This document shows, in pieces, positions 2-56,329 of a stretch of DNA of 64,000 bases. The stretch lies in IMG/VR virus record IMGVR_UViG_3300027877_000003; one strand, 5' to 3'. A program made the position numbers and the translations under genes. This DNA is from an uncultured virus (IMG/VR IMGVR_UViG_3300027877_000003) (taxonomy: Duplodnaviria > Heunggongvirae > Uroviricota > Caudoviricetes). The notes below the pieces were generated by a model, which worked only from the letters and a program-made list of their open reading frames with translations, did not search any database and was not told where the DNA came from. How positions within the stretch are numbered: the stretch's first letter is position 1; each line of letters starts with the position of its first letter.

Positions 2-136
2 AGATATAAGTTTGATTTTGTACCAGAAGAAACAAATATTCTTAGGGCAAGTGCATCTCCGTACCCTCAAACTGGATGGTGGTTTTCTAAAACACTTATG
101 GTATTTAGAAAAATGCACTATTGGAGAGAAGAATAA
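2..136 (+). CDS. 3' end of a gene truncated by the window edge; possibly a SAM-dependent methyltransferase
   Basis: Frame 2 is open from the window start and reads RYKFDFVPEETNILRASASPYPQTGWWFSKTLMVFRKMHYWREE* (TAA 134-136), two bases before the next ATG. The W..xxLMVFRK ending resembles class I methyltransferase C-termini, but this is weak. Confidence 0.5.
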   Translation, partial: RYKFDFVPEETNILRASASPYPQTGWWFSKTLMVFRKMHYWREE

Positions 137-138
137 AT

Positions 139-5212: not shown

Positions 5213-5214
5213 TT

Positions 5215-8390: not shown

Positions 8391-9311
8391 ATGGATGAAA
8401 AACAGCTAAAGGAAGCTATTGCGTCACTGGCAAAGAAAGGTGATCGGGACGCTTTAGCACAATTATTTGTGGAGTATATTGATCCACAACACATCACTAC
8501 AGATTTTGTAGGGATGATTTTAAATGCTCGCTCTTTGAAGGAAGGCGATACACTTGTGAAGAAACTTCGCAAGGGTATTGATGTCAGAACTTTAGTTCCT
8601 GGCTCGATTCATTTGAAGAGTGAAATCACCGTGACTGAGAGAGCTAACTATATTCTTGACGGTCTTGATGTTGGTGTGACATTTAACGAATGGGAAATGG
8701 AATCCGGTGAACTGGGTACTGTCGAATCCATTCGTGCTGAAATGTTAGCCAAGCTTCGAGATGTTTTCCAGAATAAAGTCTTTACTGCTCTTTCTACAAT
8801 CTGGACAGCCGTAAATACTCCCAACAACTATGTTTCTGCTGGTGGGGCTATTACTGATACTGTTCTGAAAGCTGCTATTGATTATATCAATCAAACTACT
8901 ACAGGTGTCAAAGCGGTTGTGGGTGCTAGGGTTGCTCTTACCCCCATAACTGAATTTGGTGCATTCTGGAAGAGTGACTTTTCTGCTGTGACTCCTACTA
9001 CAGTTGCTGTAGACTCACAGCTAGAACAGGTTATGAAGACTGGCTGGTTGGGTACTTATTATGGTGCTCCTATCGTGGCCATTAATCAGATTTATGATAA
9101 TCCAGAAGATCATACTGCTTTGATCCCTACCGATAAAATTCTTGTTATTGGTGAGAATGTTGGTGAGTTTATTACCTACGGCCCTCCGAGATACAAAGAA
9201 TATACCGATCCAAAGCCTACTCCTCCTCAGTGGTTCTTAGAATTTTACCAGAGATTCGGACTAATGATTTGGAAAGCTGACGGTATCTATGTAATCGGGA
9301 ACATAAGCTAA
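8391..9311 (+). CDS. Major capsid protein (HK97 fold predicted)
   Basis: 306 aa, strong AGGAGG RBS, after protease and decoration genes. GWLGTYYGAPIV and YQRFGLMIW resemble HK97-fold C-terminal elements. Confidence 0.8.
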   Translation: MDEKQLKEAIASLAKKGDRDALAQLFVEYIDPQHITTDFVGMILNARSLKEGDTLVKKLRKGIDVRTLVPGSIHLKSEITVTERANYILDGLDVGVTFNEWEMESGELGTVESIRAEMLAKLRDVFQNKVFTALSTIWTAVNTPNNYVSAGGAITDTVLKAAIDYINQTTTGVKAVVGARVALTPITEFGAFWKSDFSAVTPTTVAVDSQLEQVMKTGWLGTYYGAPIVAINQIYDNPEDHTALIPTDKILVIGENVGEFITYGPPRYKEYTDPKPTPPQWFLEFYQRFGLMIWKADGIYVIGNIS

Positions 9312-10423: not shown

Positions 10424-11668
10424 ATGAAAAGATTATTATGGCTGTCAGATGGAGTGATTCCGACAGGATTTTCTAGAGTCGCACACTCCATTATTGGGCA
10501 TTTACCAGAAGAGGAATATGAAATTCATCACTTAGCTGTGAATTATTATGGAGATCCTCATCAGTATAAACACAAAATTTATCCCGCAGTATCTAAAGGA
10601 AATATTTATGGATTGAATAGAATCCACGAGTTTAAAAATAAAAGTCTTACCGGGATTTTTATTTTAAACGATCTTTGGGTGGTAGATTTATATCTAAAGA
10701 AAATAAAAGAAGAATTCAAAAATAATATTCCCCCGATAATTGTATACTTTCCAGTAGATGCTGAAAACTTTGATGAAGAATGGTTTAGTAATTTTGATAT
10801 AGTTACACAAGCAGTTGTGTATACAAAGTTTGGATACAACGTAGCTAAAGCTGCTTATCCAAACCACGAATTTAAAATCATTCCTCATGGTGTATCTACG
10901 GATATTTTTTACAAGTTAGGGGATGATAAAAGAAAAATAAAAGAATCGCTATATCCAAAACGTGCAGAATTTTTAGACGATTCTTTTATTGTGCTTAATG
11001 CAAATAGAAACCAGCCTAGAAAAAGAATTGATGTAGCCGTAGAAGGATTTGGATTATTCTCTAAAAATAAACCAGAGAATGTAAAATACTATCACCACGC
11101 AGGTCTTCAAGATGCTGGATGGAACATATTAAAATTAGCGAAGACTTTCAACATAGATAAAAGAATTATCCTAACTAATATGGAAGCCAATGTTCAAAGG
11201 GTTTCAGACACAAAATTAAATCTAATTTACAATGCAACCGACGTAGGATTGAATACAAGCTTGGGAGAAGGTTGGGGATTGCCAAATGTTGAACACGCTG
11301 CTACAGGATCGGTTCAAGTCGTTTCTGCTAATAGTGCCAGTCAAGAATTGTTTGAAGATTGTGGATTGTTAATTCCTGTTTCACAACATTTATATTTTGA
11401 AAGAATATTGACTAAAGGACTTTTAGTTAGACCAGAAGATGTTGCAGATAGATTACAGTTTCTTTATGATAACAGAGATGCAATGAAAGCATTGTCAGAT
11501 CTTTGTTATGCAAAGTTTACCAGTGAGAAATATAGTTGGGAAGCTATAACTAAGAAATGGGATGAACTATTTTCTGAAATTTTTATAGAGAAAAAACCAG
11601 TTGAGACAGAGAAAGAAGAGGTAATAAATGACGAAATCGGGCCAGAACGTGACGATATATCAGGGTGA
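10424..11668 (+). CDS. GT-B fold glycosyltransferase, family 4
   Basis: TGFSRVAH, IIPHGV, NANRNQPRKRID, IYNATDVGLNTSLGEGWGLPNVE (E-x7-E motif). Confidence 0.9.
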   Translation: MKRLLWLSDGVIPTGFSRVAHSIIGHLPEEEYEIHHLAVNYYGDPHQYKHKIYPAVSKGNIYGLNRIHEFKNKSLTGIFILNDLWVVDLYLKKIKEEFKNNIPPIIVYFPVDAENFDEEWFSNFDIVTQAVVYTKFGYNVAKAAYPNHEFKIIPHGVSTDIFYKLGDDKRKIKESLYPKRAEFLDDSFIVLNANRNQPRKRIDVAVEGFGLFSKNKPENVKYYHHAGLQDAGWNILKLAKTFNIDKRIILTNMEANVQRVSDTKLNLIYNATDVGLNTSLGEGWGLPNVEHAATGSVQVVSANSASQELFEDCGLLIPVSQHLYFERILTKGLLVRPEDVADRLQFLYDNRDAMKALSDLCYAKFTSEKYSWEAITKKWDELFSEIFIEKKPVETEKEEVINDEIGPERDDISG

Positions 11669-11972
11669 TTATAGAATTCTTGAAGTAACTGTACTAGATG
11701 AAACGGATGCTCCAAGAGATGTTACTGGATATTTAGCAACTTGGGTTGTTTATAAACCGACTACAAAGGAAATTGTATTAACTAAAACAGTTGGTTCTGG
11801 AATTTCTGTACTTGTAGGAGCGGTGTTTGATATTACTTTAGAACCAGAAGACACCATTAATTTATTGGGACAATATAATCATGAGTGTGAACTTTTAGAT
11901 AATAGTTCACATCCATTTACTATTTTAACTGGTTACTTTAAAGTATTCTCCAGTGAAGCGAATCATCCATGA
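11628..11972 (+). CDS. BppU N-terminal-like Ig-fold structural/adaptor protein
   Basis: QNVTIYQGDYRILEVTVLD...DVTG...FDITLEPEDT..L.G.Y.HE pattern, 114 aa. Confidence 0.55.
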   Translation: MTKSGQNVTIYQGDYRILEVTVLDETDAPRDVTGYLATWVVYKPTTKEIVLTKTVGSGISVLVGAVFDITLEPEDTINLLGQYNHECELLDNSSHPFTILTGYFKVFSSEANHP

Positions 11973-12871
11973 GCAAAGTATCTATAATTATTCCTTCTAG
12001 AAATGAAATTTTTCTTGCTGAAACAGTAAAAGATCTTTTAACAAAAGCCAGTGGAGATATAGAAGTAATTGCTTTTTTAGATGGCTATTGGCCAGATGGA
12101 AACACAACTCATAATTTAGATTTATGGAATGAATTATTAGTTTCTGAAAATCCAAACATTGTTATATTACGTATAAACAATGCCAAGGGAATGAGGAACG
12201 CTATCAATTCTGCTGCCTCAATTGCTAGAGGAGAATATCTTCTAAAGTGTGACGCTCACTGTATGTTTGGTGAAGGATACGATGAAATATTAAAAGCAGA
12301 TATGCAAGATAATTGGATAGTAATTCCTCCTAGATATTCTCTAGATGCAGAGAATTGGAAGATAGAGGATAATGGAAAACCTAGAAGAGATTATCATTAT
12401 CTTTGTTATCCAGACCCAAATAAAGATCATGATCATGGTATGCATGGTGTAGAGTGGTGGAGTAGAGGCAGAGAAAGAGCCGATTATATTATAGACGATA
12501 ATATGTCTTTTCAAGGAAGTTGTTGGTTCATGAAGAAAACTTGGTTTACTGATTTCTTAGGGGGAATGAGTGAAGTAGGCTATGGAACATTTAGCCAAGA
12601 GCCTCAAGAAATTGGATTAAAAACATGGTTAGGTGGTGGAGAAATCAAAGTAAATAAAAATACTTGGTACGCTCATTTACATAAAGGATCGAGGTATGGA
12701 AGAATGTATAAAATAAATCAGAAAGAAATAATAAATTCTCATGATTGGGCTGCTAGACATTGGATGAATAATGAATGGGAAAAAAGAATTCATAATATAG
12801 ATTGGCTTATTGAAAAGTTCTGGCCTGTCCCTACATGGCCAGAAGACCGTTCTTTATGGGTAGCCCCATGA
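11969..12871 (+). CDS. GT-A glycosyltransferase (GT2/GT27-like), paralog 1
   Basis: SIIIPSRNE, GMRNAINSAA, KCDAHC (DxH), QEPQEIGLKTWLGGG..WYAHLHK. Confidence 0.85.
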   Translation: MSKVSIIIPSRNEIFLAETVKDLLTKASGDIEVIAFLDGYWPDGNTTHNLDLWNELLVSENPNIVILRINNAKGMRNAINSAASIARGEYLLKCDAHCMFGEGYDEILKADMQDNWIVIPPRYSLDAENWKIEDNGKPRRDYHYLCYPDPNKDHDHGMHGVEWWSRGRERADYIIDDNMSFQGSCWFMKKTWFTDFLGGMSEVGYGTFSQEPQEIGLKTWLGGGEIKVNKNTWYAHLHKGSRYGRMYKINQKEIINSHDWAARHWMNNEWEKRIHNIDWLIEKFWPVPTWPEDRSLWVAP

Positions 12872-13764
12872 ATAAAGTTTCTATTATTATACCATCCAGA
12901 GATGAAGAATATTTAAACAGTACAATTAAAGATTTATTAAATAAAGCGGTATGGGATGTAGAAATAATTGTAATTTTAGATGGATATACTTCTCATCCTC
13001 TTCCAGATTATGATCCTAGAATTAGATATCTACAATTACCAGAACCAATGGGAATGAGACATGCAATTAACTTAGGAGCTAATCTGGCAACTGGAAAATA
13101 TTTAATGAAGTTAGATTCTCATTGTGTAATGAGTGAAGGTTATGATCTTATCTTCCAAGAATACTGTGATGATGATTGGGTAGTGGTAGCTAGAAGAAAA
13201 GAATTAAGTCCTGAATGGATAGTTACTGAACCTACAGCGGATTATTTTTATATGAGTAATCCTTGGACTTCTCCTAATGGTTATATGAGAATGTCCAGAT
13301 GGATCACTAGAGATAAACAAAGAGAAAGCATGTTACATGATGAAACAATGTGTTTCTCTGGAAGTATCTGGTTTATGTCTAAAGATCATTTCTTCAAAAG
13401 AATTAAAACAATGGATGAAGAAAGGTTTGGTCAATGGTCTGGAGAACCAGAAGAAATTTCATGTAAAACTTGGTTAAGTGGTGGGAAGGTTATAATCAAT
13501 AAAGATATCTATCACGCCCACCTTAGGAAAGATAAAATAGGAAGACCTTATCACATTTCTTGGAATTCAGCTTTAAAGGGTTTACAAGAAAGTGCTAGAT
13601 ATTGGTCTAGTGATGAATGGCCTGACAGGATATATAATTTTGAATGGCTGATAGATCACTTCTGGCCTTTGCCTACTAAAGAACATCATTGTAATGGAGA
13701 AAGGTATTTTTGGGAGTACGACTGGAAGGAGAGGTATTTATGGAAGACATTAAATTTTTCTTAG
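12868..13764 (+). CDS. GT-A glycosyltransferase (GT2/GT27-like), paralog 2
   Basis: SIIIPSRDE, KLDSHC, WSGEPEEISCKTWLSGG..HAHLRK. ATG 12868 overlaps the upstream TGA. Confidence 0.85.
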   Translation: MNKVSIIIPSRDEEYLNSTIKDLLNKAVWDVEIIVILDGYTSHPLPDYDPRIRYLQLPEPMGMRHAINLGANLATGKYLMKLDSHCVMSEGYDLIFQEYCDDDWVVVARRKELSPEWIVTEPTADYFYMSNPWTSPNGYMRMSRWITRDKQRESMLHDETMCFSGSIWFMSKDHFFKRIKTMDEERFGQWSGEPEEISCKTWLSGGKVIINKDIYHAHLRKDKIGRPYHISWNSALKGLQESARYWSSDEWPDRIYNFEWLIDHFWPLPTKEHHCNGERYFWEYDWKERYLWKTLNFS

Positions 13765-14399
13765 AAACAAATTATCCGCTTGCAAAAGATTCTTATGATT
13801 ATATCTACCCACAGGGAGCGGCTGTAGATAATAATCGTAGACCAGAATTCAATCAAGAACTAAAAAATTTTCCAGGAAGCGTTTTAGATTTGGGGTGTGC
13901 TGGAGGAGGATTTATTAAAGATTGTGTAGACGAGGGAAGAATAGCTATCGGATTAGAGGGAAGTGATTATTGTAAAAAATTTAATAAATATGAATGGGCT
14001 ACAATTCCAGATAATTTATTTACTTGTGATATTACTAAACCATTTATATTACATATAGGAAATATAAAACCTTATAAATTTAACATCGTAACTATGTGGG
14101 AAGTTTTTGAACATATAGAAAAGAAAGATATAGATCAAGTATTTGAAAACATAAGAAATCATTTATCTGACAGCGGAATTTTTCTTTGTACAATTACTAG
14201 AGGACATAGCCCACATGACTTCTATAGAGAAGTTGATCTACACAGAACCAGAGAAAAAAGGGAGTGGTGGTTAAAACAATTTATACATAATGGATTTATT
14301 GAGGATGAGCAAGTTGAAGAAAAATTTGCTGGAAAATGGATGAGAGAAAGCAGAAGTAATTATAAACTTGCTTTCAGAAAGGATTTGAAAAGTGGCTAA
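13740..14399 (+). CDS. Class I SAM-dependent methyltransferase
   Basis: VLDLGCAGGG, IGLEGS, TCDITKP, WEVFEHI, NHLSDSGIF. ATG 13740 after GGAGAGG. Confidence 0.85.
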   Translation: MEDIKFFLETNYPLAKDSYDYIYPQGAAVDNNRRPEFNQELKNFPGSVLDLGCAGGGFIKDCVDEGRIAIGLEGSDYCKKFNKYEWATIPDNLFTCDITKPFILHIGNIKPYKFNIVTMWEVFEHIEKKDIDQVFENIRNHLSDSGIFLCTITRGHSPHDFYREVDLHRTREKREWWLKQFIHNGFIEDEQVEEKFAGKWMRESRSNYKLAFRKDLKSG

Positions 14400-15297
14400 G
14401 GTATCAATATTAATTCCTTCTCGTAATGAAACTTATAAAACTAATTTTGGAACTACAGTTCTACAACAAACAGTTATAGATGTATTAGAAAAAGCTACTG
14501 GAGATTATGAAGTTCTGGTTATATTTGATGGAGAACCTTATCAGGATTTACCTGAGCATAAAAATCTAACGGTGTTCTATAACAAATCCCCAACAGGATC
14601 TAAGAAATGTATCAGTAAATTAATTAATAGATCTACAGGAAAATTCGTATTCAAATTAGACTCTCATTGTATGGTAGCAGAAGGATTTGATGAAGTATTG
14701 CAAAAAGATGTAGAAGATAATTGGGTAGTTATTCCTAGATTTTATGTACTAAATGCTGAGGAATGGAAGTGGCAAGATGAAAGATTTTACGATTATTTTT
14801 ATCTGCCCTGTCCTTTAACTGATAAGAAGCAATTCAGATTTCAAGCTGGAGGACATTGGAAAGAAAGAACCAAAGAAAGATTAGATATTTCTATAGATGA
14901 GAATATGAAACTTCATGGTTCTGCTTTTTTTATGAGCAAAGATTTCTTTATAAATTGTATAAAGGAATTAGATTCAAAGTACGATGATTGTAGTGGAGAA
15001 GATATAGAGATAAGTTTGAAAACGTGGCTAGGATCTTGGGGTGGAAAATTAATGGTAAACAAAAATACTTGGTATGCACACATGCATAAGGGTGGCCAAA
15101 GACCGAGAGGTTATCATATGGGAGGAGAACAAATTAAAAATACATATGATTTTATAGCTAACTATTGGATGAGGAATTCTTGGGAAGAAAGAGAACACGA
15201 TTTGGAATGGTTAATAGAAAAATTTTATCCTGTTCCTACTTGGCCTGAAAACTGGAAAGAACTTTGGAATGAATGGAAAGGAGTTAATAATGAATAA
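14392..15297 (+). CDS. GT-A glycosyltransferase (GT2/GT27-like), paralog 3
   Basis: SILIPSRNE, KLDSHC, SGEDIEISLKTWLG..GG..WYAHMHK, WLIEKFYPVPTW. Confidence 0.85.
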   Translation: MAKVSILIPSRNETYKTNFGTTVLQQTVIDVLEKATGDYEVLVIFDGEPYQDLPEHKNLTVFYNKSPTGSKKCISKLINRSTGKFVFKLDSHCMVAEGFDEVLQKDVEDNWVVIPRFYVLNAEEWKWQDERFYDYFYLPCPLTDKKQFRFQAGGHWKERTKERLDISIDENMKLHGSAFFMSKDFFINCIKELDSKYDDCSGEDIEISLKTWLGSWGGKLMVNKNTWYAHMHKGGQRPRGYHMGGEQIKNTYDFIANYWMRNSWEEREHDLEWLIEKFYPVPTWPENWKELWNEWKGVNNE

Positions 15298-15931
15298 TAC
15301 TTTGAATTATTTTGTAGAAACTTTTGGACTTGACTTGTCTAATCCTTCTCCTATAACTCTGCGTTATAGTAGATATAATATTATAAATGCATTTAGAGAA
15401 CTTAATTTTTCAATGGGTGTAGAAGTTGGAACTGAACACGGAAGATATGCAGAAAAAGTAGTATCAAGTAATCCACAACTCAAATTATATTGTGTAGATC
15501 CGTACCTAGCCATACCTTATTATGAAGCATATAAAGAACAAGAAGAAGTGGATTCATTTTATGAAGTAGCTAAAAATAGACTTAGTGAATATAATTGTGT
15601 AATATTAAAGACAACTAGCATGGAAGCAGTTAAACAATTTGAAGATAATGGTTTAGATTTCGTTTTTATAGATGCTGATCATAGATTTGAATTTGTAATT
15701 AATGATCTTATTTACTGGTCTAGGAAAGTTAAGCCTGGGGGAATTGTATATGGACATGATTATATTGATGACTTTCAAGTAAAACAAGCAGTTCATGTTT
15801 ATACTGATGTATATAAAATCAATCCTTGGTTTATTTTACATAAGGGAGGAAGACTCATAGATAGCTGGATGTTTGTTAGACAAGAAACCGATCAAATTTT
15901 CCTTCCAAAAGATAGTTATTGGTATCAATAA
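15290..15931 (+). CDS. Class I SAM-dependent methyltransferase (Methyltransf_24-like)
   Basis: GVEVGTEHG, LYCVDPY, DFVFIDADH, KVKPGGIVYGHDY. ATG 15290 after AAGGAG. Confidence 0.85.
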   Translation: MNNTLNYFVETFGLDLSNPSPITLRYSRYNIINAFRELNFSMGVEVGTEHGRYAEKVVSSNPQLKLYCVDPYLAIPYYEAYKEQEEVDSFYEVAKNRLSEYNCVILKTTSMEAVKQFEDNGLDFVFIDADHRFEFVINDLIYWSRKVKPGGIVYGHDYIDDFQVKQAVHVYTDVYKINPWFILHKGGRLIDSWMFVRQETDQIFLPKDSYWYQ

Positions 15932-15932
15932 A

Positions 15933-17609
15933 ATGGATCTAAGTATTTTAATTCCTGCAAGAAACGAAATTTTTTTATCTAGAACTATTGAAGATATTCT
16001 TAAAAATATAAGAGGGGATACAGAGGTCATTGCTGTTTTAGATGGTTATTGGCCAGATCCTCCAATTGATAATGATCCTAGAGTAACCATCATTTACTAT
16101 TCAACAAGCATAGGACAAAGAGCGGCTACAAATGCAGCGGCTAGACTCAGTAAAGCTAAATATGTAATGAAAGTAGATGCTCATTGTGCTTTTGATGAAG
16201 GCTTTGATGTAAAGTTAATGGAAGATATCCAGGACGATTGGACTGTAGCCCCATTAATGAAAAATTTACATGCTTTCGATTGGGTGTGTAAATCTGTTCT
16301 ACATCTTGAAAGAGATGATAAAGAAAGAAAACTACATACTCGATATCAAGGCCCATCAGGAGTTTGTAGAGAATGTGGAAAAGAAACTGTAATGGATGTA
16401 GTATGGATAGCTAAGAACAGTCCTAATAGTACGTCATACTGTTTTGACTCAGAGCCACACTTTCAATATTTTGGAGAGTATAGAAAACGTCCAGAAGGTC
16501 AAGGAGATCTAACTGAAAGCATGTCTTTACAAGGCTCTTGCTTTATGCTGACCAGAGATAAATATTTTGAGTTAGAAATGAATGATGAATCTTGGGGGAG
16601 TTGGGGATCACAAGGATTGGAAACAGCAATACGTACTTGGCTATCTGGAGGAAAAGTAATAATTAATCACAAGACTTGGTATGCCCATATGTTCAGAACT
16701 CAAGGAGGAGATTTTGGATTTCCATATCATCTTTCTGGAAGGCAAGTAGAACACGCTAAAAAAGTAGCCAGAGAATTGTTCTTTGAGAATAAATGGGATA
16801 AACAAATTAAACCTTTGTCTTGGTTAGTAGAAAAATTCTGGCCTGTTCCTGGATGGAAAGATGAAGATTTAGTTAAATTAAAAAAAGCAGACGCTAATCT
16901 TGGCCCAACTAAAGGTATTGTTTATTATACAGATAATCAACTTGATCCAAAAATAATGCAACGCTGTCAAGACCAGTTGATTTCGTCTGTGAATAGTCAT
17001 AAGATCATAAGTGTTTCATTGAATAAAATAAACTTTGGAGATAATATTACTTTAAATTTAGAGCGTGGTTATCTAACTATGTTCAAGCAAATCTTAGCTG
17101 GACTAGAAGCTTTAGATACCGATATTGTTTTCTTTTGTGAGCATGATGTATTATATCCTCCGGAACACTTTGAATTCGTTCCTCCAGAGAAAGATAAATT
17201 TTATTATAATATAAATGTATGGAAAACTGATGGAGAACATTATCTCCATTATGATTGTAAACAAACCAGTGGATTGTGTGCCTATAGAGATTTATTAATA
17301 GAGCACTATAAAAAACGAGTTGCTAACACTCAAAAGGTTTGGGATGAACAAGGGGGTAATACAAGAGGATTTAGAGACTTTATTCGTAAACAAGGTTTTG
17401 AACCTGGGACACATAATAGATCAGAAAGAGTGGACGATTATAAATCAGAAGCTTGGGAATCTACTGTTCCAATTGTTGATATTAGACATGAAAATAATTT
17501 AACTCCTAGCAGATGGAGTCAAGATCAATTTCGAGATAAACGAAATTGTCGTGGATGGTTAGAATCAAATTCGATCCCTGAATGGGGAAAAATTGAGGAA
17601 TTTATGTAA
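15933..17609 (+). CDS. Two-domain glycosyltransferase: GT2/GT27-like paralog 4 fused to a second GT-A-like domain
   Basis: SILIPARNE, KVDAHC, WGSQGLETAIRTWLSGG..WYAHMFR; the second domain has IVYYTDN and DIVFFCEHDVLY. ATG 15933. Confidence 0.85.
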   Translation: MDLSILIPARNEIFLSRTIEDILKNIRGDTEVIAVLDGYWPDPPIDNDPRVTIIYYSTSIGQRAATNAAARLSKAKYVMKVDAHCAFDEGFDVKLMEDIQDDWTVAPLMKNLHAFDWVCKSVLHLERDDKERKLHTRYQGPSGVCRECGKETVMDVVWIAKNSPNSTSYCFDSEPHFQYFGEYRKRPEGQGDLTESMSLQGSCFMLTRDKYFELEMNDESWGSWGSQGLETAIRTWLSGGKVIINHKTWYAHMFRTQGGDFGFPYHLSGRQVEHAKKVARELFFENKWDKQIKPLSWLVEKFWPVPGWKDEDLVKLKKADANLGPTKGIVYYTDNQLDPKIMQRCQDQLISSVNSHKIISVSLNKINFGDNITLNLERGYLTMFKQILAGLEALDTDIVFFCEHDVLYPPEHFEFVPPEKDKFYYNINVWKTDGEHYLHYDCKQTSGLCAYRDLLIEHYKKRVANTQKVWDEQGGNTRGFRDFIRKQGFEPGTHNRSERVDDYKSEAWESTVPIVDIRHENNLTPSRWSQDQFRDKRNCRGWLESNSIPEWGKIEEFM

Positions 17610-20600
17610 TGGCACGTGTATGGCATAGTGGTTGGGAACTGAATAACCCCGCTTCAGTAGAATGGACAAGTACGATAGTTAGCACAGGCGCTATCTCAAG
17701 TTCAATCGTACGAAGTGGTTCATATTCATATCAAATTACTTCCCTTGTATCGACGACATCCAAAGGAGAACGTTTTGCGTACTTAGGAAGTGAAGCCACT
17801 AATGAACATTATTTCAGATTGTGTCTTTATGTAACAACCTTTCCAGGTGCGGAGAATCGGATTGCCATTTGGAATGACGGGTCTGGTACGGCCACACCTG
17901 GAGTTTACTTAACACTAGATAACTCTGGTGTCCTCAGGCTATACGATGAGGATGGTCAGATTACTGGAACAACCACTCTTTCAACTGGTCAGTGGTATAT
18001 CATTGAAGTCCACTACTCAAATACTGGTGGAGCAGGTGCTTGTGTAGTTGAAGCCAGAGTCAATCTGGCATCTCCTTTTGCTAGTTCATCTACACGTAGT
18101 ATTGCCTCCAATAATAGTCCCTTCCATTTCTTTGTCGGTGGCAATCTAAATGGCGAAGCTAATACAGTTGGTGAATGGTATTTTGATGATATTGCGATCA
18201 ATGATACTACTGGATCGTTTCAGAATAACTGGCCTGGGGACGGACATATCGTACATGCTCATCCTAACGAGGCAGGTGAATACAGTGACTGGACGAACAC
18301 CTATGCCAACGTCGATGAGGTTACGCCGGATGATGCAGTAACTCTATGTGCATCGAACACGCTCAACCAGATTGACGATCACGGGATGGTCACGCCTGCT
18401 GAACTAGAATCGGGCGATACAATCAATGTGGTCAGCGTGGGTGTGAGGTATAACGGAGCAGGGGCGGCAGATAATGCCTCGTTTGTGGTACGCATCAAAA
18501 CTGGTGCAGGGGCGACACCAGAAGAATCTAGTGCCATTACTCCTGCAAGTACAACTTGGTATACAAACGCCGGGGCTGCACCTCAGTTATATCCATTAAC
18601 TCTTTATGATTTGCCAGGAGCGTCAACAACGGCTTGGACTAAATCTTCTCTGGATGCCGCTCAAATCGGATACAGATGCTCAACGGCTAATACCAATAAT
18701 GCTCAGGTATCGACTATATGGGCATTGATCGATTATACACCAGTGCCATCTTCATCCGTTTCTCCGTCTATTTCACAAAGTCTCAGTTTAAGTGCATCAC
18801 CAAGTCTAAGTCAATCTGCCAGTATCAGCCCATCTATAAGTCCGTCTTTTTCAGCTAGTCCAAGTCCTGCTGTTGGAATACTCGTTGATATAGATTTTGA
18901 AGAAAATAATCTTAATGAATTTGATAGTGTAGTAAATCCTGATGATGATCTAACCGTAAATGCTGGTTATGCTTTAGGAGGTACTAGTTACGGACTTGGC
19001 TGCCGAATAGATGATACAAATCCGGCGTACGGCATTAAATCTGGATTCCAAAGTTTAACAGGAGATGTTCGTGCTCGTTTTCTTTTTGATCCAAATGGAA
19101 TGCTCAAAGAAGTTTATACAGTATATCTGCTTCAACTTCAAAATATTTCAGATACAAATTTTGCATGGGTGGGAGTTTATTGTGATGCGGATAGTTATAG
19201 CATACGAGCAGCACTTATTGAAGACGATGGAACAGCGGTAGTTACATCAATTGTTTTAGGTGAAATTACCGATGCCGAACATTGTGCTGAGATTTATGTT
19301 CAACGGGCAACAGGTGAAAGTTCTAACGATGGATCATTGCAATTATGGATTGATGGGGTATCCATTCAAACTGTAACTGGGGACAATTTTAATAGATTTG
19401 GATCATTTAATAAAATATTATTTGGTATACCCGCAGTTGGTGGTGGTGCGACTAGTACAATATTTTTAGATGAATTAATTATCAATGATACTGGAAATGA
19501 AATCGGTTGTGCAATACCAAGTGCATCAGTTTCCCCTTCAATTTCCCAAAGCTTTTCTATTTCTCCAAGTGCAAGTATAAGTTTTTCTGCAAGTGTGAGT
19601 CAATCAGTTTCTGTAAGTATAAGTCCTTCTGTTTCAGTTTCAGTTTCTCCATCAGTTTCTCTGAGTATTTCTCCAAGTGTGAGTCAATCAGCTTCACCGA
19701 GTCCAAGCGCACCAATTGGAATACTCGTTGATATAGATCATGAGGAAAACAATTTCTCTGATTATGACAGCGTAGTAGATGTGGACGGAGATCTATCTGT
19801 TACATCTAGTGCGGCATTGGGCGAGACAAATTATGGTCTTGCTTGTTTAATAGACGATGTAAATATAATGTACGGTGAAGTAACCAGCCTTCACAGTATG
19901 ACCGGAGATTTACGTGCTCGTTTCCATATCAATCCGCATGGATTGAACATGGCTGATGGGGATACAATAACTCCTTTAATTCTTTACAATGAAACAATTG
20001 GATTTACTATTGCCGCTGTCCGACTTGGATATACTACTGCTAATGGATATTTTATAGGAGTAGGTTTTGTTAATGATGCTGTCCAATATTTTTGGACAAC
20101 CGATTTACTAGGTGTTATTACTAATCAAGAACACTGTGTTGAGTTTTACCTACAACGAGCAACTACTGTAGATTCAATTGATGGTTCATTACAGTTATGG
20201 ATTGACGGCGTTTCTATAGAAACGATCTCTGGAAAGGATAATTATGACAGATTTGCATCGTTTAATACACTTCGATTTGGTGTAGTATACACAGCAGCTA
20301 CCACAACAGGAACTTTTTATTTAGATGAATTAATAATTAATGATACTGGAACAGAGATAGGTTGTTTAGCTATACCTTCAGGATCTATTTCTCCTTCAAT
20401 TAGCCCTTCAGCTTCTGTAAGTATAAGTGTAAGTCCATCAATTTCTGTTTCAATTTCTCCATCTATTTCTCCGAGCATTTCTCCTTCATTTTCAGTAAGT
20501 GCTTCTATATCCCCAAGTGGAAGTATTTCAGCTAGTGTAAGTCCATCGGCTTCCGAAAGTCCAAGTGCAGTTGAGAGTGCCAGTGAATCTCTTTCGGTCA

Positions 20601-23600
20601 GTCCATCTGTATCTCCTAGCATTTCGCCTAGTATTAGTCATAGTGCCAGCATTTCTCCCAGTCCTAGTGTCTCACCTAGTATTAGCCTATCTGCCTCTGT
20701 CAGTCCTTCAGTCTCTAGATCTATCAGTAAAAGTGCATCAGTAAGCCCGTCTATCAGCCCATCGGGAGCTGCTGATACTCCTTTCTATGAGAAATCACAG
20801 AACAATAGAGTTGTTTGGGGAGCATCAGGCACTAGAACCTACTCATTTACTTGTCCATCGGTTGATGATGGATTAATGTTAATTGGAATAACTCTTAATG
20901 CAACAATACCGGCTAATTGTTATCCGGCTACTGTAAGTTATGGAGGAACTCCATTAACTCAAGTTACTGAGAAAGTTACTTATGGGTTTAATACAACTAG
21001 CTTATGGTATCTCAAAGAACCCACAGCGGGAACGGCAGATATTGTCATAACCATCAGCAACTCCGATGTTTTTGCTATAGTTGTTCAAACAGTAATTTAC
21101 TCCAATGTTAATCAATCCAATACTTTTGGAACTCCAGTTAAAGATACTGTAGTAGTCGCTACAAACAATTTTGATACTGCGGAAATTACAAGTGCAAGCA
21201 ATGAAATTGTAGTTGCCGTTTTTGGAACACACGATGCAAATGATGAAGATGATCTATTCTCTGATAGTGGTCAAACTGTTAGATTAATAGAACAGAGCGG
21301 CGGTTCACCAGGTACTGACAAGTCAGCATTAGAAACTTTTGATGAAGAAGCTGGAGCAACATCTGTTTATTGTGGCTGGACAACTACCAGCAATTGTAAA
21401 GGTGGATGGATAGCTGTTCCAATCAGAGGTAAAATAGGGAGTGCTTCTGTTTCGCCTTCGGTGAGTTTATCTATTAGTCCATCTGCCAGTATATCACTAT
21501 CACCATCAGTTTCACCAAGTATAAGTCCTTCGGCAAGTGTTAGTCCAAGTATTAGTCTGTCTGCTAGTGTTTCTCCTTCAGTAAGTCCATCTGTTTCACT
21601 TTCCATAAGCCCTTCCGCATCAATTTCACCCAGTGTTTCTCCTTCAGAGAGTCGGAGTGTAAGTGCAAGCGCAAGTGCTTCTGTTTCTCCAAGTGTATCT
21701 GTTTCAGTCAGTCTTTCTATTTCCCCTAGTAGAAGTATATCTCCATCTGTATCTCTATCAGTTTCACGTTCAGTTAGCCCATCAGTTTCACCATCTGTAA
21801 GTTTAAGTTTATCACCTTCTGGATCTGTATCTGTTAGTGAAAGTATTAGTGCGAGTCCTTCTCCTTCTGTTGGCTCTGAATCTGTTAGTCCTAGTGTCTC
21901 TCCAAGTGTCTCTCCCAGTTATAGTGTTAGTATTTCTGTTTCACCTTCAGTATCTCCATCAGTTAGCCCTAGCATTAGCCCATCTGCTTCAGTCAGTCTA
22001 TCAGTTAGTCCAAGCGTCAGTCCTTCTGTTAGCCCTTCGGCTAGTGTATCACCATCCATCGGAGCAATCGGAGAGGTATGTTGGGGACATGATACCGATG
22101 TGGATGAAGCTAATGTATTAGATTTTGCTGGTAACTGGAGCGGGACTGGTACTATCTCAGGGACAGGAGATGCAGAAGCTATCGAGTTGAACGTAGGTGA
22201 GTATATGATCTCTGAGATCGTAGAGACAGGTGACATGATATGTGAATTACTCCAGAACGCATATGACCCATCTGGTGATGATGTGATTATGGAGTACCGC
22301 ACCGGATCAACTGTCTTTGAATGCTTTGATGCCGCTTGGACGATCTATACTGATAAATTTATTTCGGAAGGTTATGTCCAGATTAAACTAACCAACGCTG
22401 ATGTATTTTACGTTGATGCAACAGATGGAGATGATGGTAATCCAGGTACAGAAGAAGAACCTTGGCAAACGATAACCAAGGTCAATGCAGCTACTCTCAC
22501 GCCAGGTGATCATGTATTATTCAAGCGTGGAGAAACATGGCGTGGTGAATCAATGGCCGTTCCATCTTCAGGGGCTGCTGGCGCACCTATCACCTTCGGT
22601 GCATATGGGACAGGTGCAAATCCACTCATTGATCCGACAACTGAGTTTAATGACTTCAGTAGTTATAGTGGCAATATTTGGAGGCGTTCACAAGTAGGTG
22701 TAATAAGTCTCACGCAGGTATTTGAGGACGGAACACGGATGATTTTTGCTGCCAACATTGCCGCAATGGTTCAGGGATCATGGGCATACGACTCATCCAC
22801 CCCAGGCTATGTCTATGTTTGGTGTAGTGATGACGGCAACCCCAACACGGGGCATGTAATTGAGTACGATGCTGTGACCCTTGCAAATCTTGGGACAATC
22901 CAGCTGAACGGGAAATCATACCTTGTTTTTGATAGCATTGATTTTTACAGACCAGGAGATTGTGCTTTTATTGCCTCTGATACGGTTACACCATCGACAT
23001 ATGTAACTATCCAGAACTGCAACTTTTCCTTTTGTGGTGGGCGATCTATATTGTTAGGCACAGATGGCTCATATGGTTATACCTACCCGACTGATGTGAC
23101 TGTATCCAACTGTGTAGCACATGACGATTTGGATGTCCCGTTCTGGATCGGGCATGGTACACGCCTGATTATTGAAAATTGCGAAGCATATGATTGTGGC
23201 AAAGATGTTGATCCGTATGGAAAACTATATTCAACATCAAAACACTTTCCAAACGGCATCTTGATTAGTGCAGAAGCTCAGGATTGTATTGTCAGGAATA
23301 ATTATGTCCATGACATATATGATATAGCAATTCTTGATGAGCAATCAATTGGAGAAGTTGGAAATAACACAATTATTGAGGGAAATTTAATCGACATGAC
23401 AAGCAGAAGTAATACATGCTTAGAAGTCGAGGGTGACAATACAACCGTCCGCAATAACATTATATATACTGGTTCTGGTTCTGCCATCATTCTAGCAAAT
23501 AGCCCTGCATCCCCGTTGATATACAATAATACAATCATCAGTCCATCCGGGGCTGGACACTCAATAGATACAAATAGCCAGCCAGGGGCTAAGGTCAAAA

Positions 23601-23947
23601 ATAACATTATCATTCGGGCTGGTGCAACCAATCGTTATGTATCAGTAGCAATCGCAGCACAAACTAACTTCGAGGCTGATAATAACTTGTATTATGGTGC
23701 ATCTACTGGACGGTGGTTTTGGGGGCCAACTGAGTACACTACATTTGCAACCTGGAAATCTAACTCAACCCAGGATGCAAATGGGTTGAATGAAGATCCG
23801 ATAGTTGTCACACAATGGACTGATCTTCACTTGCAAGTAACTTCACCCTGCATTGGTGCGGGGGAGGCTGGACTGGTAACTGATGATTATGACGATGTAG
23901 CACGTGGCGCTACAACTGATATTGGAGCATTGGAGTATGTAGCATAA
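17609..23947 (+). CDS. 2112-aa serine-rich-repeat virion fibre/adhesin (LamG/ConA-like domains, four Ser-X tracts, WGH domain, C-terminal beta-helix)
   Basis: LSTGQWYIIEVH / WYFDDIAIND and two LQLWIDG..LDELIIND domains; (S-X)n tracts; FYVDATDGDDGNPGTEEEPWQTI..GDHVLFKRGETW start of a pectin-lyase-like beta-helix; ends DLHLQVTSPCIGAG..DIGALEY. Confidence 0.75.
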   Translation: MARVWHSGWELNNPASVEWTSTIVSTGAISSSIVRSGSYSYQITSLVSTTSKGERFAYLGSEATNEHYFRLCLYVTTFPGAENRIAIWNDGSGTATPGVYLTLDNSGVLRLYDEDGQITGTTTLSTGQWYIIEVHYSNTGGAGACVVEARVNLASPFASSSTRSIASNNSPFHFFVGGNLNGEANTVGEWYFDDIAINDTTGSFQNNWPGDGHIVHAHPNEAGEYSDWTNTYANVDEVTPDDAVTLCASNTLNQIDDHGMVTPAELESGDTINVVSVGVRYNGAGAADNASFVVRIKTGAGATPEESSAITPASTTWYTNAGAAPQLYPLTLYDLPGASTTAWTKSSLDAAQIGYRCSTANTNNAQVSTIWALIDYTPVPSSSVSPSISQSLSLSASPSLSQSASISPSISPSFSASPSPAVGILVDIDFEENNLNEFDSVVNPDDDLTVNAGYALGGTSYGLGCRIDDTNPAYGIKSGFQSLTGDVRARFLFDPNGMLKEVYTVYLLQLQNISDTNFAWVGVYCDADSYSIRAALIEDDGTAVVTSIVLGEITDAEHCAEIYVQRATGESSNDGSLQLWIDGVSIQTVTGDNFNRFGSFNKILFGIPAVGGGATSTIFLDELIINDTGNEIGCAIPSASVSPSISQSFSISPSASISFSASVSQSVSVSISPSVSVSVSPSVSLSISPSVSQSASPSPSAPIGILVDIDHEENNFSDYDSVVDVDGDLSVTSSAALGETNYGLACLIDDVNIMYGEVTSLHSMTGDLRARFHINPHGLNMADGDTITPLILYNETIGFTIAAVRLGYTTANGYFIGVGFVNDAVQYFWTTDLLGVITNQEHCVEFYLQRATTVDSIDGSLQLWIDGVSIETISGKDNYDRFASFNTLRFGVVYTAATTTGTFYLDELIINDTGTEIGCLAIPSGSISPSISPSASVSISVSPSISVSISPSISPSISPSFSVSASISPSGSISASVSPSASESPSAVESASESLSVSPSVSPSISPSISHSASISPSPSVSPSISLSASVSPSVSRSISKSASVSPSISPSGAADTPFYEKSQNNRVVWGASGTRTYSFTCPSVDDGLMLIGITLNATIPANCYPATVSYGGTPLTQVTEKVTYGFNTTSLWYLKEPTAGTADIVITISNSDVFAIVVQTVIYSNVNQSNTFGTPVKDTVVVATNNFDTAEITSASNEIVVAVFGTHDANDEDDLFSDSGQTVRLIEQSGGSPGTDKSALETFDEEAGATSVYCGWTTTSNCKGGWIAVPIRGKIGSASVSPSVSLSISPSASISLSPSVSPSISPSASVSPSISLSASVSPSVSPSVSLSISPSASISPSVSPSESRSVSASASASVSPSVSVSVSLSISPSRSISPSVSLSVSRSVSPSVSPSVSLSLSPSGSVSVSESISASPSPSVGSESVSPSVSPSVSPSYSVSISVSPSVSPSVSPSISPSASVSLSVSPSVSPSVSPSASVSPSIGAIGEVCWGHDTDVDEANVLDFAGNWSGTGTISGTGDAEAIELNVGEYMISEIVETGDMICELLQNAYDPSGDDVIMEYRTGSTVFECFDAAWTIYTDKFISEGYVQIKLTNADVFYVDATDGDDGNPGTEEEPWQTITKVNAATLTPGDHVLFKRGETWRGESMAVPSSGAAGAPITFGAYGTGANPLIDPTTEFNDFSSYSGNIWRRSQVGVISLTQVFEDGTRMIFAANIAAMVQGSWAYDSSTPGYVYVWCSDDGNPNTGHVIEYDAVTLANLGTIQLNGKSYLVFDSIDFYRPGDCAFIASDTVTPSTYVTIQNCNFSFCGGRSILLGTDGSYGYTYPTDVTVSNCVAHDDLDVPFWIGHGTRLIIENCEAYDCGKDVDPYGKLYSTSKHFPNGILISAEAQDCIVRNNYVHDIYDIAILDEQSIGEVGNNTIIEGNLIDMTSRSNTCLEVEGDNTTVRNNIIYTGSGSAIILANSPASPLIYNNTIISPSGAGHSIDTNSQPGAKVKNNIIIRAGATNRYVSVAIAAQTNFEADNNLYYGASTGRWFWGPTEYTTFATWKSNSTQDANGLNEDPIVVTQWTDLHLQVTSPCIGAGEAGLVTDDYDDVARGATTDIGALEYVA

Positions 23948-26136
23948 TGAGTGCCAGCATTTCACCCAGTTTCAGCCCAAGTCCATCAATGGCAATTGTG
24001 CAGGATGTGGTACTACGCTTCAAGGGTAGCCCAAGTGTCAGTCCTTCAATCAGTCCCTCAGTCAGCCTTTCTGTTTCACCGTCAGTTAGCTTTAGTATCT
24101 CTCCAAGTGCATCAGTCAGTCTGAGTATAAGTGAATCTCCGTCACTCAGTCCATCACCAAGCATGGGTGTATCTGAATCTGAGTCTGTTAGTCCAAGTGT
24201 ATCACTTAGTATTTCCCCAAGCATAAGCCCAAGTGCGTCTGTATCTCCTAGTATTAGTCCTAGCGTAAGTATCAGTGTTTCGCCGTCTGAATCTCCTTCT
24301 GTTTCTTTAAGCATAAGCCTTTCTGCGAGTGTTTCTCTTTCTGTTAGTCCTTCAGAATCACCTTCTGTATCAATTAGTATTTCTCCTTCGATTAGTCCAA
24401 GCGAAAGTGTATCACTATCAATCAGTCCTAGTATATCTCCGAGTGTATCACGTTCGGTTAGTCCAAGTGTAAGTCCTTCTGTTGGTGCTGTTGGTTCAGT
24501 TAGTTGGGGTCATTTGACTGGTGTAACACAAGACAATGTTTTGACATTTGCTGGTAACTGGACAGGTACTGGATCAATCACTGGAACAAATGATGCAGAG
24601 ACAATGTGTATAGATGAAGGCGAATATATGATGTCAGAGATAGTCGAGACAGGAGACATGATAGTTGTTTTGACCCAAAACACATATGACCCTGGAGGAG
24701 AAGATGCCCCAATACTGGAATATAGAACCGGAGCAACTTCCGCAGAGTGTTTTGATGCAGCATGGATAATTTATACTGCACCATTCTTATCTGCTGGTTA
24801 TGTGCAGATAAAAGTTACTAATGCAGACATATTTTATGTAGATGCCACAGGCGGGAGTGATAGCAATCCTGGTACACTGGCCGAACCTTGGAAGACGATT
24901 GATAAGGTGAATGGGGAAACATTTACGGCGGGTGATCACATCCTATTCAAGAGAGGAGAAACATGGAGTACGGTAGATGATGTATTGCGTATTACTTGGA
25001 ACGGATCAGCAGAGAATCACATTGTATTTGGTGCATACGGATCAGGTGCATTGCCGATTATCTCACCAACCAACACAATTCCTATCTATGCACCAGCAGT
25101 ACAAAGCTATATTACCGTTGAGAACATAGATTGCAATGTGAACGGGACTGGTAATTTTGGAATGCAGGTTAGATTATCTAACTCGATTATTAGGAATTGC
25201 GTGGCACGAGAAGCGGCAATGGCGGGAATACTTCTTGGATCAGATAGTGCATATACTCTGATAGAAAATTGTACTTGCTATAACAACGCACAGTTTGGCA
25301 TTCAGGGTTATACCGCTTCAGGCAGTACCATTCACGACATCATTGTTCAAAATAATACTTGTTACGCAAATGGTACTGATAGTGGTGGACATCATGGAAT
25401 ATATTTAGGCGGTAATGGAGGAACTGGTAGATGTGCATATAACCTGACTATGCGTGGAAATACCTGTTATGAAAATGCTTCTTGTGGGGTCAAATACAAC
25501 ACCGTCGAGGATAGCATTATTGAGCAGAATTATTGCTATGACAATGGTTTAGCTGGTGTATTCCTTAGTGCGGAAACAAGTCGAGTGTCCTCCAATAATA
25601 TTGTCAGAAACAATATTTGCTACTCCAATTCGTGCGGTATAGCACTTTTGGGGGACGGTGTTGATGACAATGAGCTTTATCACAACACATTGGTTTTGAA
25701 TTATGCGGCTGGATGGGCGGGCATAAGCTACTATTACGACGGACTATCCGGTAATACAGCTAAGAATAACATTATCTATATGGATAATAGCTACACTGGC
25801 GCTCCCCCTATACGCTTTGCCGGAGTAAACGCCAGAGACAATAATATTACTGACTATAATTTGATTTACTGGAAAGATAGACCACCTGCGAACGGAATAA
25901 TTTATGTGGATGGCGTGGGCTATTACACGTGGACTGCTTGGCAAGCACTTGGTAAAGATACACATAGTATCAATGCGTCCGATCCAGTTTTTGTTACCGA
26001 CTTCACCGATTTACACATCCAAACCACCAGTCCTGCTAAGAACACGGGTGAGACTGGATTAGGTGTAACCGATGATTACGAGGGTACAATCCGTGATGCC
26101 CAACCAGATATGGGTGCATATGAGTACGTGGCTTAG
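23947..26136 (+). CDS. 729-aa serine-rich-repeat fibre with WGH domain and C-terminal beta-helix
   Basis: N-terminal Ser-X tract, VSWGH domain, FYVDATGGSDSNPGTLAEPWKTI, repeated IIENCTCYNN-type rungs, ends DLHIQTTSPAKNTG..DMGAYEY. Confidence 0.75.
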   Translation: MSASISPSFSPSPSMAIVQDVVLRFKGSPSVSPSISPSVSLSVSPSVSFSISPSASVSLSISESPSLSPSPSMGVSESESVSPSVSLSISPSISPSASVSPSISPSVSISVSPSESPSVSLSISLSASVSLSVSPSESPSVSISISPSISPSESVSLSISPSISPSVSRSVSPSVSPSVGAVGSVSWGHLTGVTQDNVLTFAGNWTGTGSITGTNDAETMCIDEGEYMMSEIVETGDMIVVLTQNTYDPGGEDAPILEYRTGATSAECFDAAWIIYTAPFLSAGYVQIKVTNADIFYVDATGGSDSNPGTLAEPWKTIDKVNGETFTAGDHILFKRGETWSTVDDVLRITWNGSAENHIVFGAYGSGALPIISPTNTIPIYAPAVQSYITVENIDCNVNGTGNFGMQVRLSNSIIRNCVAREAAMAGILLGSDSAYTLIENCTCYNNAQFGIQGYTASGSTIHDIIVQNNTCYANGTDSGGHHGIYLGGNGGTGRCAYNLTMRGNTCYENASCGVKYNTVEDSIIEQNYCYDNGLAGVFLSAETSRVSSNNIVRNNICYSNSCGIALLGDGVDDNELYHNTLVLNYAAGWAGISYYYDGLSGNTAKNNIIYMDNSYTGAPPIRFAGVNARDNNITDYNLIYWKDRPPANGIIYVDGVGYYTWTAWQALGKDTHSINASDPVFVTDFTDLHIQTTSPAKNTGETGLGVTDDYEGTIRDAQPDMGAYEYVA

Positions 26137-26144
26137 GATGTTAA

Positions 26145-55422: not shown

Positions 55423-55434
55423 AGGAAAAATAAA

Positions 55435-56322: not shown

Positions 56323-56329
56323 ATTTAAG

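Follow-up and report, generated by a model that had tools for sequence, protein, structure and literature searches.

The 64-kb DNA stretch analysed here (64,000 nucleotides; hereafter the window) is IMG/VR record IMGVR_UViG_3300027877_000003; it holds the virion genes of a tailed phage known only from uncultivated material and reads as one strand of its genome. Between the head genes and the tail genes lies an enzyme cassette (positions 11969-17609) composed of four glycosyltransferases (GTs) and two methyltransferases, which abuts four genes for proteins with long tracts of alternating serine, (Ser-X)n. In silico analysis showed that the closest structural relatives of the four transferases are the polypeptide N-acetylgalactosaminyltransferases (ppGalNAc-Ts, or GalNAc-Ts) of family GT27, the enzymes initiating mucin-type O-glycosylation in animals, and gene linkage suggests that the repeat proteins are probably their acceptors. 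An earlier reading of this DNA, made from the letters and their translations (hereafter the sequence-only reading), had listed the four transferases and omitted the two methyltransferase genes contained in the same span. The cassette comprises the following genes and domains (lengths in amino acids, aa; E, expect value):

11969..12871, + strand: GT-1, soluble GT27-like GT-A enzyme of subfamily A (300 aa; PF00535 E 1.4e-12; DAHC at 12251)
12868..13764, + strand: GT-2, divergent GT27-like paralogue (298 aa from the ATG; PF00535 E 4e-15; DSHC at 13114)
13710..14399, + strand: class I S-adenosylmethionine methyltransferase (Methyltransf_23), accessory (Pfam E 5.5e-12)
14392..15297, + strand: GT-3, GT27-like paralogue of subfamily C (301 aa; PF00535 E 4e-9; DSHC at 14659)
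15269..15931, + strand: methyltransferase of the Methyltransf_24 type, conserved cassette member (Pfam E 3.4e-15)
15933..17609, + strand: GT-4, two-domain enzyme (558 aa from the ATG; DAHC at 16176)
15933..16907, + strand: N-terminal domain of GT-4, GT27-like, subfamily B
16908..17609, + strand: C-terminal domain of GT-4, second GT-A fold (ExD at 17130)

Each of the four enzymes carries a DxH motif in place of DxD, encoded exactly at the positions given above. The downstream block WGSQGLETAIRTWLSGG..AHMFR is present in GT-4 and the block WSGEPEEISCKTWLSGG..AHLRK in GT-2, where it reads WSGEPEE...AHLRK (translation and alignment), and the alignment shows the C-terminal motif WL(I/V)xxF(W/Y)P(V/L)P to be common to all four. 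The sequence-only reading had described these motifs correctly, as it had the absence of a ricin lectin domain: Pfam yields PF00535 alone for the four proteins, even at E up to 10. Identity to GT-1 among the four is 35-46% (alignment), and three of them stop at about 300 aa. No PHROG family was found for any of the four, and the curated bacterial families of NCBIfam gave weak, sub-threshold N-terminal matches only (e.g., PgaC, 28.5 bits vs. a cut-off of 422).

The kinship of the enzymes was examined at the level of single sequences, profiles and structures, using as GT27 comparators mouse GalNAc-T1 (8v9q/1xhb), human GalNAc-T2, T4, T7, T10 and T12, Drosophila PGANT9 and Toxoplasma gondii GalNAc-T3 (TgGalNAc-T3). 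In single-sequence phmmer searches of PDB sequences, ppGalNAc-Ts accounted for seven of the 11 matches of GT-1 (GalNAc-T12: E 4.6e-5, residues 3-267) and for the top 15 of the 18 matches of GT-4. Among 3913 candidate proteins, 3550 relatives were collected at E<=0.001; at this threshold there are 948 cluster representatives (50% identity), 257 of which reach E<=1e-30. An alignment of 61 single-domain family members (A2), giving a profile of 289 positions, matches 14 distinct ppGalNAc-T sequences with E values of 1.6e-20 to 2.3e-14. Thirteen of these matches span profile positions 3 or 4 to 254, while that of GalNAc-T10 (2d7i) spans 3-223; GalNAc-T7 and TgGalNAc-T3 are matched over their full length. 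For chondroitin polymerase, SpsA, DPM synthase, ArnC and other non-GT27 enzymes of the GT-A fold, the match to the A2 profile ends at about position 122. The Pfam family PF00535 does not discriminate, as it matches all 61 family members (the four window proteins at E 4e-9 to 4e-15) and the GalNAc-T clusters too.

Structural comparison gave the same result. The AlphaFold2 model of GT-1 has a predicted local distance difference test score (pLDDT) of 93.9 and a predicted template-modelling score (pTM) of 0.93. With this model as query, the Foldseek matches at ranks 1-50, among those listed, are all ppGalNAc-Ts (E 1.3e-15 to 1.6e-12), with template-modelling (TM) scores by query of 0.61-0.71 for the listed ppGalNAc-T matches. 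An exhaustive VIA-align search placed mouse GalNAc-T1 at Z 26.4 (root-mean-square deviation 3.0, 275 residues) and TgGalNAc-T3 at Z 25.2, followed by chondroitin polymerase (18.6), WrtF (18.4) and SpsA (17.6), so that GT2 chains rank 7-9 Z units below GT27. The ESM Atlas model shows TM scores of 0.80-0.81 to eukaryotic ppGalNAc-T clusters over 275-278 residues. The A2 profile, Foldseek and VIA-align thus agree that the enzymes are GT27-like rather than SpsA-type GT2, as had been predicted, and by structure they do not nest among the polysaccharide GT2s. Their resemblance to GT27, as judged from sequence, exceeds chance, and the conclusion that the four enzymes work like GT27 and are its closest kin is well supported. 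They possess neither the lectin domain nor the membrane anchor of GT27, and are therefore not members of that family in the strict sense. The GT60 family PF11397 gave no match to the four window proteins at E up to 10, nor to the 61 family members at E up to 0.01; neighbouring viral clusters carry PF11397, which we note as a lead only. The nearest viral models in BFVD belong to uncultured Caudovirales, and several of them are annotated as 'Glycosyltransferase, GlcNAc'.

In the A2 alignment three columns only are invariant (D95, H97 and H236). HMMER alignments place them opposite the DAHC motif and the His of GHVFR in GalNAc-T1 and TgGalNAc-T3, residues taken to be the Mn2+ ligands of GT27. No transmembrane-like segment or signal-like N-terminus was found by hydropathy in the enzymes, the methyltransferases or the repeat proteins; the four enzymes peak at 0.75-1.07 over 19 residues and have no N-terminal hydrophobic segment. 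Because membrane-like segments are missing, the system is predicted to be soluble and cytoplasmic, unlike the Golgi enzymes. The 54 open reading frames (ORFs) of at least 100 aa in the window include no polytopic membrane protein, and neither a flippase nor a polymerase, as a lipid-linked route of glycan synthesis would require, was found among them.

To place the four genes in a wider context, IMG/VR was scanned with the four-protein alignment. The scan confirmed 531 of 598 candidate stretches, and the virus-locus counts given below refer to the 80 loci that were kept. A FastTree phylogeny of 140 distinct GT27-like domains from virus loci, in which the window is represented by identical rows of locus L001, distinguished: (i) subfamily A, with GT-1 (72 rows from 70 loci; signature F-x-Q-E-x-Q-E ... 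AHLHK); (ii) subfamily B, with the N-terminal domain of GT-4 (47 rows from 47 loci, 39 of them long fused proteins; support 100), whose signature, W-G-[QS]-[QM]-G-x-E ... AH[ML]FR, is the most similar to that of animal GalNAc-Ts; (iii) subfamily C, with GT-3 (20 rows from 20 loci; support 100); and (iv) GT-2, a single row that stands alone on a long branch as the sister of A+C. Because the deepest split joins long branches, the deep branching order is not secure. Subfamilies A, B and C are each single-copy per phage locus, with the content A and B in 34 loci, A in 16, all three in 11, A and C in nine and B in two, many of the loci being truncated. The sequence-only reading had taken the four genes for an expanded isoform family; they are indeed paralogues, but the tree shows three old subfamilies and one divergent copy rather than a recent expansion. 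The subfamily-specific active-site signatures fit a division of labour by step or by donor. In loci with subfamily C the repeats have a lower Pro content (median 0.21 vs. 0.31) and a higher Lys/Arg content (0.06 vs. 0.02), a comparison confounded by shared ancestry, and are also richer in Ala. This is the single, weak hint of the alternative raised by the sequence-only reading, in which the enzymes would be divided by sequence context (SP/SV/SE).

Subfamily B differs from the others by a Cys-bearing insert of about 30 residues between DxH and the next core strand (residues 117-148 of GT-4; 16281-16376). At least one CxxC occurs in this insert in 43 of 44 B rows, compared with none of 68 A rows and none of 20 C rows, and the insert may be a zinc-ribbon-like element. 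The C-terminal domain of GT-4 (residues 326-558) was modelled by AlphaFold2 as a GT-A fold with a pLDDT of 96.2. Its structural matches are tied and generic (Z 12.9-12.2; CHSY3, hyaluronan synthase, TarS, SpsA and others), corresponding to GT-A and nucleotidyltransferase folds at large, so the family was left unnamed. The domain contains invariant E79 and D81, forming an ExD motif (A4 alignment, 44 sequences), and has no sequence relative in the PDB by single sequence or by profile. In the Atlas it falls among virus-only clusters, with TM scores of 0.65-0.69 to PF00535 clusters, and a homologue is encoded in 53 of the 80 virus loci. We read it as a second transferase, one that probably extends the glycan. 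As for the methyltransferases, a homologue of the Methyltransf_24 protein occurs in 64 of the 80 loci and one of Methyltransf_23 in just two. A viral cluster of the Atlas contains the same GT type fused to RMNT_CmcI/Methyltransf_24, and the Methyltransf_24 protein is a probable sugar O-methyltransferase.

The proposed acceptors are the four serine-rich repeat (SRR) proteins encoded downstream of the cassette:

17609..23947, + strand: SRR1 (2112 aa, 16.5% Ser), six (Ser-X)n tracts between globular domains
23947..26136, + strand: SRR2 (729 aa, 15.9% Ser), N-terminal (Ser-X)n tracts, a shared domain of about 110 aa and a beta-helix
26145..27602, + strand: SRR3 (485 aa, 38% Ser), one (Ser-X)n tract of 342 residues, then the shared domain of about 110 aa
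27602..30463, + strand: SRR4 (953 aa, 40% Ser), an N-terminal globular domain, then four long (Ser-X)n tracts

Strictly alternating Ser-X tracts in these proteins reach 342 residues. Over 834 positions, the X residue is most often Pro (236), Val (224), Ile (124) or Ala (80), and the Ser codons of the repeats are a mixture of AGY and TCN; the capsid-like protein of the window has 3.9% Ser. Two of the four repeat proteins end in a right-handed beta-helix (PF13229; E 1.2e-15 in SRR1, which also matches phrog_14065 on residues 1-380). Domains of this kind are frequent in phage fibres and tailspikes. In three of the four proteins, a domain of about 110 residues directly follows the last Ser-X tract (22079-22450, 24502-24870 and 27279-27600). 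This domain, with the motif [CS]WGH...GYVQ[IV], joins 29 repeat ORFs from 22 loci and matches no Pfam or PHROG family. Contigs of three runs show many joints at 18.8-27.1 kb, i.e., assemblies break or mis-join inside the Ser-X genes (window 17600-27900), and for this reason the repeat lengths in any one assembly, the window included, may be unreliable. One library, although labelled metatranscriptomic, is probably DNA; short contigs identical to parts of GT-2/methyltransferase, GT-4, SRR1 and SRR3 were found in it, from which nothing about transcription is concluded.

The association of cassette and repeats recurs in other virus contigs. With a repeat ORF defined by at least 40 residues in (Ser-X) runs of at least six units, 67 of the 80 virus loci contain such an ORF. 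Ten of the 13 repeat-less loci end within about 1 kb past the last GT gene, which corresponds to the repeat side in the window, and one of these ten is a truncated record of the same phage. All 102 of 102 repeat ORFs lie on the GT strand (median gap 417 bp), 39 of them within 100 bp and 85 within 2 kb. Homologues of the terminase, portal, protease and capsid-like genes are found in at most four of the 80 loci, compared with 80 of 80 for the GT27-like gene. Since head genes rarely recur, while the GT, the Methyltransf_24 gene and the second GT-A domain do, the 80 loci do not represent one phage lineage.

As a control, 80 loci were fetched with an unrelated capsid-family alignment. Thirty-five of them have both the GT and the repeat, none has the GT without the repeat, six have the repeat without the GT and 39 have neither; in five of the six, the repeat ORF lies at or nearly at the contig end. 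When the control was restricted to the 46 loci with at least 4 kb downstream (34 dropped), the respective numbers were 27, 0, 0 and 19. Controls based on single proteins gave no usable set (endolysin, 0 loci; small GT2, three near-identical loci). The non-repeat parts of 106 repeat ORFs form 33 clusters. A cluster of 30 groups a small protein encoded directly after the capsid gene (e.g., L044:8932-9951), in which about 100 globular residues precede a stretch of pure Ser-X that runs for about 230 residues to the stop codon; the protein resembles a capsid decoration whose tail would carry glycans. In members of the same capsid clade that lack the GT cassette (e.g., L113), another gene, of 98 aa, follows the capsid gene.

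Relatives were also found in contigs of metagenome-assembled genomes (MAGs), where 271 candidates yielded 207 confirmed ones, of which 73 loci, some with masked stretches, were kept. Forty-four of these are named as lineages of the candidate phyla radiation (CPR)/Patescibacteria and 21 are labelled as uncultured Gammaproteobacteria. The phage hosts are probably CPR/Patescibacteria. The DNA of the phage itself matches its IMG/VR record at 100% identity, and at least three metagenome studies of wetlands and freshwater contain it, with at least 79% of the sampled words.

Besides the cassette and the repeat genes, the window contains the following genes, to which tail proteins identified with PHROGs are to be added:

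121-573: TagD- or RfaE-domain-II-like cytidylyl/adenylyltransferase (sub-threshold)
563-1306: ORF without a named function
1299-1814: GmhA-like sedoheptulose-7-P isomerase (SIS)
1811-2446: GT25
2428-3033: small GT2
3011-3667: small GT2
3671-5212: large terminase (PHROGs)
5200-6729: portal (PHROGs)
6829-7788: protease (PHROGs)
8391-9311: capsid-like protein (phrog_16565)
10424..11668, + strand: accessory GT-B (GT4-type) glycosyltransferase (phrog_2170, E 7e-44), resembling B736L of chlorella virus PBCV-1 (PDB 3oy2, E 6.2e-13)
35015-39892: tape measure (PHROGs)
47843-48898: endolysin (PHROGs)

The genes at the left end (121-3667) suggest an activated heptose or CDP-glycerol made by the phage, and are a possible sugar-activation set. 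At 54157-62084, in a region with 25% GC, a cluster encodes an Amidoligase_2 protein, a phiEco32-like COOH-NH2 ligase, a peptidase C26/GATase and two proteins of the glutamine amidotransferase type, and may serve to modify peptides or metabolites.

On the basis of gene linkage, we consider it fairly probable that the cassette O-glycosylates the downstream (Ser-X)n virion proteins in the cytoplasm. Acceptor and donor are inferred, as are the order in which the steps occur and their role in the biology of the phage, and the proposed sequence of events is as follows. Genes 11969-17609 would form a cytoplasmic protein O-glycosylation cassette of four GT-A enzymes and two methyltransferases. In the infected cell, at least one GT27-like enzyme would use a nucleotide sugar as donor to glycosylate the hydroxyl groups of the alternating Ser residues, the acceptors being the four (Ser-X)n proteins encoded directly downstream. 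Subfamilies A, B and C would act as initiating and follow-up enzymes, or would differ in donor; the second GT-A domain and the accessory GTs may lengthen the glycan, which the methyltransferases may then cap. Beta-helix fibres and other appendages of the virion would thereby acquire mucin-like stalks of a bottle-brush shape. Since a homologue of the GT-B gene occurs in only two of the 80 virus loci, the conserved initiating enzyme must be a GT27-like gene or the fused domain. The peptide-initiating step is placed among these same genes because they are the only transferases that travel with the repeats. A more general form of the proposal extends it to phages and their probable CPR hosts, which would share a lectin-less, cytoplasmic mucin-type O-glycosylation in which two to four anciently diverged GT27-like enzymes, sharing the task by donor or as initiating and follow-up enzymes, load almost every second residue of (Ser-X)n tracts hundreds of residues in length, and a fused second GT-A domain and methyltransferases complete the glycan, giving bottle-brush 'phage mucins' on capsid decorations and beta-helix fibres; this generalization is tentative, and we regard it as doubtful rather than probable.

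Several results weigh against the glycosylation of the repeat proteins by GT27-like enzymes. Identity to GT27 structures is 15-22%, and the region corresponding to WGGEN aligns yet is degenerate, PF02709 being matched at E<=0.01 by just two of the 61 family members. The repeats of the window contain almost no Thr, while animal GalNAc-Ts prefer Thr. On the capsid tree, the GT and repeat traits change about twice, which corresponds to one or two independent pairs; with so few independent events the control table carries little statistical weight and a sign test is powerless. In MAG contigs, a strict (Ser-X)n ORF lies within 10 kb in just 13 of the 73 loci, and any ORF with at least 40% Ser+Thr per 60-residue window in just 26 of 73, therefore the enzyme family is not obligately tied to Ser repeats. 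The earlier description of the enzymes as peptide-acting and Ser-directed finds support in the adjacency and co-occurrence with (Ser-X)n in virus contigs, but less so in MAGs, where the pairing is weak. The chromosomal-looking loci L170 and L208, the latter adjoining a leucyl-tRNA synthetase gene, encode the same enzyme types, several Methyltransf_24 proteins and an RmlD-like protein, and no Ser-X protein. The range of acceptors is probably wider than Ser-X repeats, or cellular acceptors are encoded elsewhere. In four MAG contigs labelled as uncultured Gammaproteobacteria (L170:17683-20858, also L176, L188 and L231), two or three paralogues of about 370 aa, rich in Ser, Thr and Asn but without Ser-X, are encoded after the cassette and are possible alternative acceptors.

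Other explanations were also considered. Within a single pathway, one or none of the GT27-like enzymes might touch the peptide, the others extending the glycan. Such a division would agree with the presence of the four enzymes in old, distinct subfamilies found once per locus, with the difference in active-site signature between subfamilies, with the fusion of subfamily B to a further GT-A domain, and with the two methyltransferases and five additional GT genes or domains of the window, which suggest a multi-sugar glycan. All four enzymes, however, retain the full GT27-like catalytic domain with the D-x-H...H triad, and repeats also occur beside A and B only (34 of 72 loci) or beside A alone (16 of 72), many such loci being truncated; we judge this explanation unlikely. 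A different role, modification of a host surface polymer or of host proteins (cell-wall glycopolymer, S-layer or pili) during infection or lysogeny, e.g., for superinfection exclusion, would make the Ser-repeat tracts unglycosylated flexible linkers. It is difficult to reconcile with the position of the cassette, which lies among the structural genes from head to tail, shares their strand and abuts the repeat genes, with the joint gain and loss of cassette and repeats in virus contigs, and with the absence of a membrane protein, flippase or polymerase among the 54 ORFs. Prophage-encoded GT-A enzymes such as TarP do have the same fold (Z 16.4), but GT27 is clearly closer than TarP-type enzymes. 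Other findings that speak for a host target are the close relatives in chromosomal-size MAG contigs without nearby Ser-repeat genes (60 of 73 loci; e.g., L208) and the classification of the IMG/VR record nearest the window as a provirus. On balance, we consider a host target quite improbable.

DNA glycosylation deserves mention as well, since phage GTs are known for it (PMC12619734, citing Pyle et al. 2024), and enzymes producing hypermodified bases could help the phage to evade restriction. Genes for base hydroxymethylation were not seen in the window, which leaves about 30 kb of the genome uncovered; the cassette is located in a structural module and linked to repeat proteins and sugar-type methyltransferases, and the closest structures are those of peptide-acting enzymes. 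Action on phage DNA is thus highly improbable, and O-glycosylation of the downstream (Ser-X)n proteins remains the preferred explanation.

The family described here is large (948 clusters, 531 confirmed virus loci) and closer to GT27 than to other solved GT-A enzymes. It escaped laboratory study because none of the 50,697 deposited phage genomes contains a relative at E<=0.001. In the literature consulted, mostly listings and abstract openings, no description of GT27-like phage enzymes or of Ser-X repeat virion proteins was found, nor any characterised prokaryotic or phage counterpart of GT27. Mucin-type O-glycosylation is treated as eukaryotic and Golgi-based. If the proposed activity is correct, the way in which phages make mucin-like stalks differs from what is known of mycobacteriophages, and the enzymes would be useful as small, soluble tools with which to glycosylate Ser densely. 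Subfamilies A, B and C would then offer a simple model of work-sharing between initiating and follow-up isoenzymes, and the family, as the closest prokaryotic or viral kin of the animal mucin-initiating enzymes, would bear on their origin and supply an outgroup for that of GT27.

Four known systems invite comparison. GT60 (PF11397), a relative of GT27, comprises soluble, cytoplasmic polypeptide GlcNAc-transferases that act on peptides. The nearest neighbours of the phage enzymes by feature and by fold include viral clusters and BFVD entries named 'Glycosyltransferase, GlcNAc', but the four proteins are without PF11397, and the closeness to GT60 is unranked, no solved GT60 structure being among the matches listed.

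Virion glycosylation is established in mycobacteriophages, where phage GTs encoded beside the structural genes were reportedly taken by Freeman et al. 2023 to modify virion proteins of the phage itself within the cytoplasm of the host. PMC12619734 places the mycobacteriophage glycans on the C-termini of capsid and tail-tube subunits. The window resembles this system in having phage GTs within a structural module, with virion modification inferred here. It differs in its proposed acceptors, which are proteins in their own right with alternating Ser residues by the hundred, not the C-termini of capsid or tail-tube subunits.

The SRR glycoproteins of Gram-positive bacteria, such as Fap1, GspB and PsrP, contain alternating Ser-X and are O-glycosylated in the cytoplasm by GtfA/GtfB, with an accessory Sec system. 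These glycoproteins are the subject of PMC2952246. Long alternating Ser-X tracts and a dedicated multi-GT cluster are common to both systems, and GalT1 (5hea) matches the N-terminal GT-A half of the family (E 5.2e-11). In contrast, the conserved phage enzyme is a GT27-like GT-A transferase and not a GT-B GtfA/GtfB pair, SecA2/SecY2 or any membrane protein is absent among the 54 window ORFs, and the Ser-X tracts are carried by structural proteins of a phage that contain beta-helix domains.

Compared with eukaryotic GT27, the phage enzymes are without the ricin-type lectin domain and the type II signal anchor, they have a family-specific C-terminal helix with WLxxFxPxP, and their proposed acceptors are strictly alternating in Ser, with almost no Thr. 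The two groups are alike in their GT-A catalytic domain, which aligns over 269-275 of 300 residues (Z 25-26), in the D-x-H-C motif and the distal His, which occupy the same alignment columns, and in the degenerate block [WF]-x-x-[EQ]-x-x-E ... G-G ... A-H-x-[FH]-[RK]. They are also alike in the occurrence of several paralogues beside densely hydroxylated repeat acceptors, which in the phage are putative.

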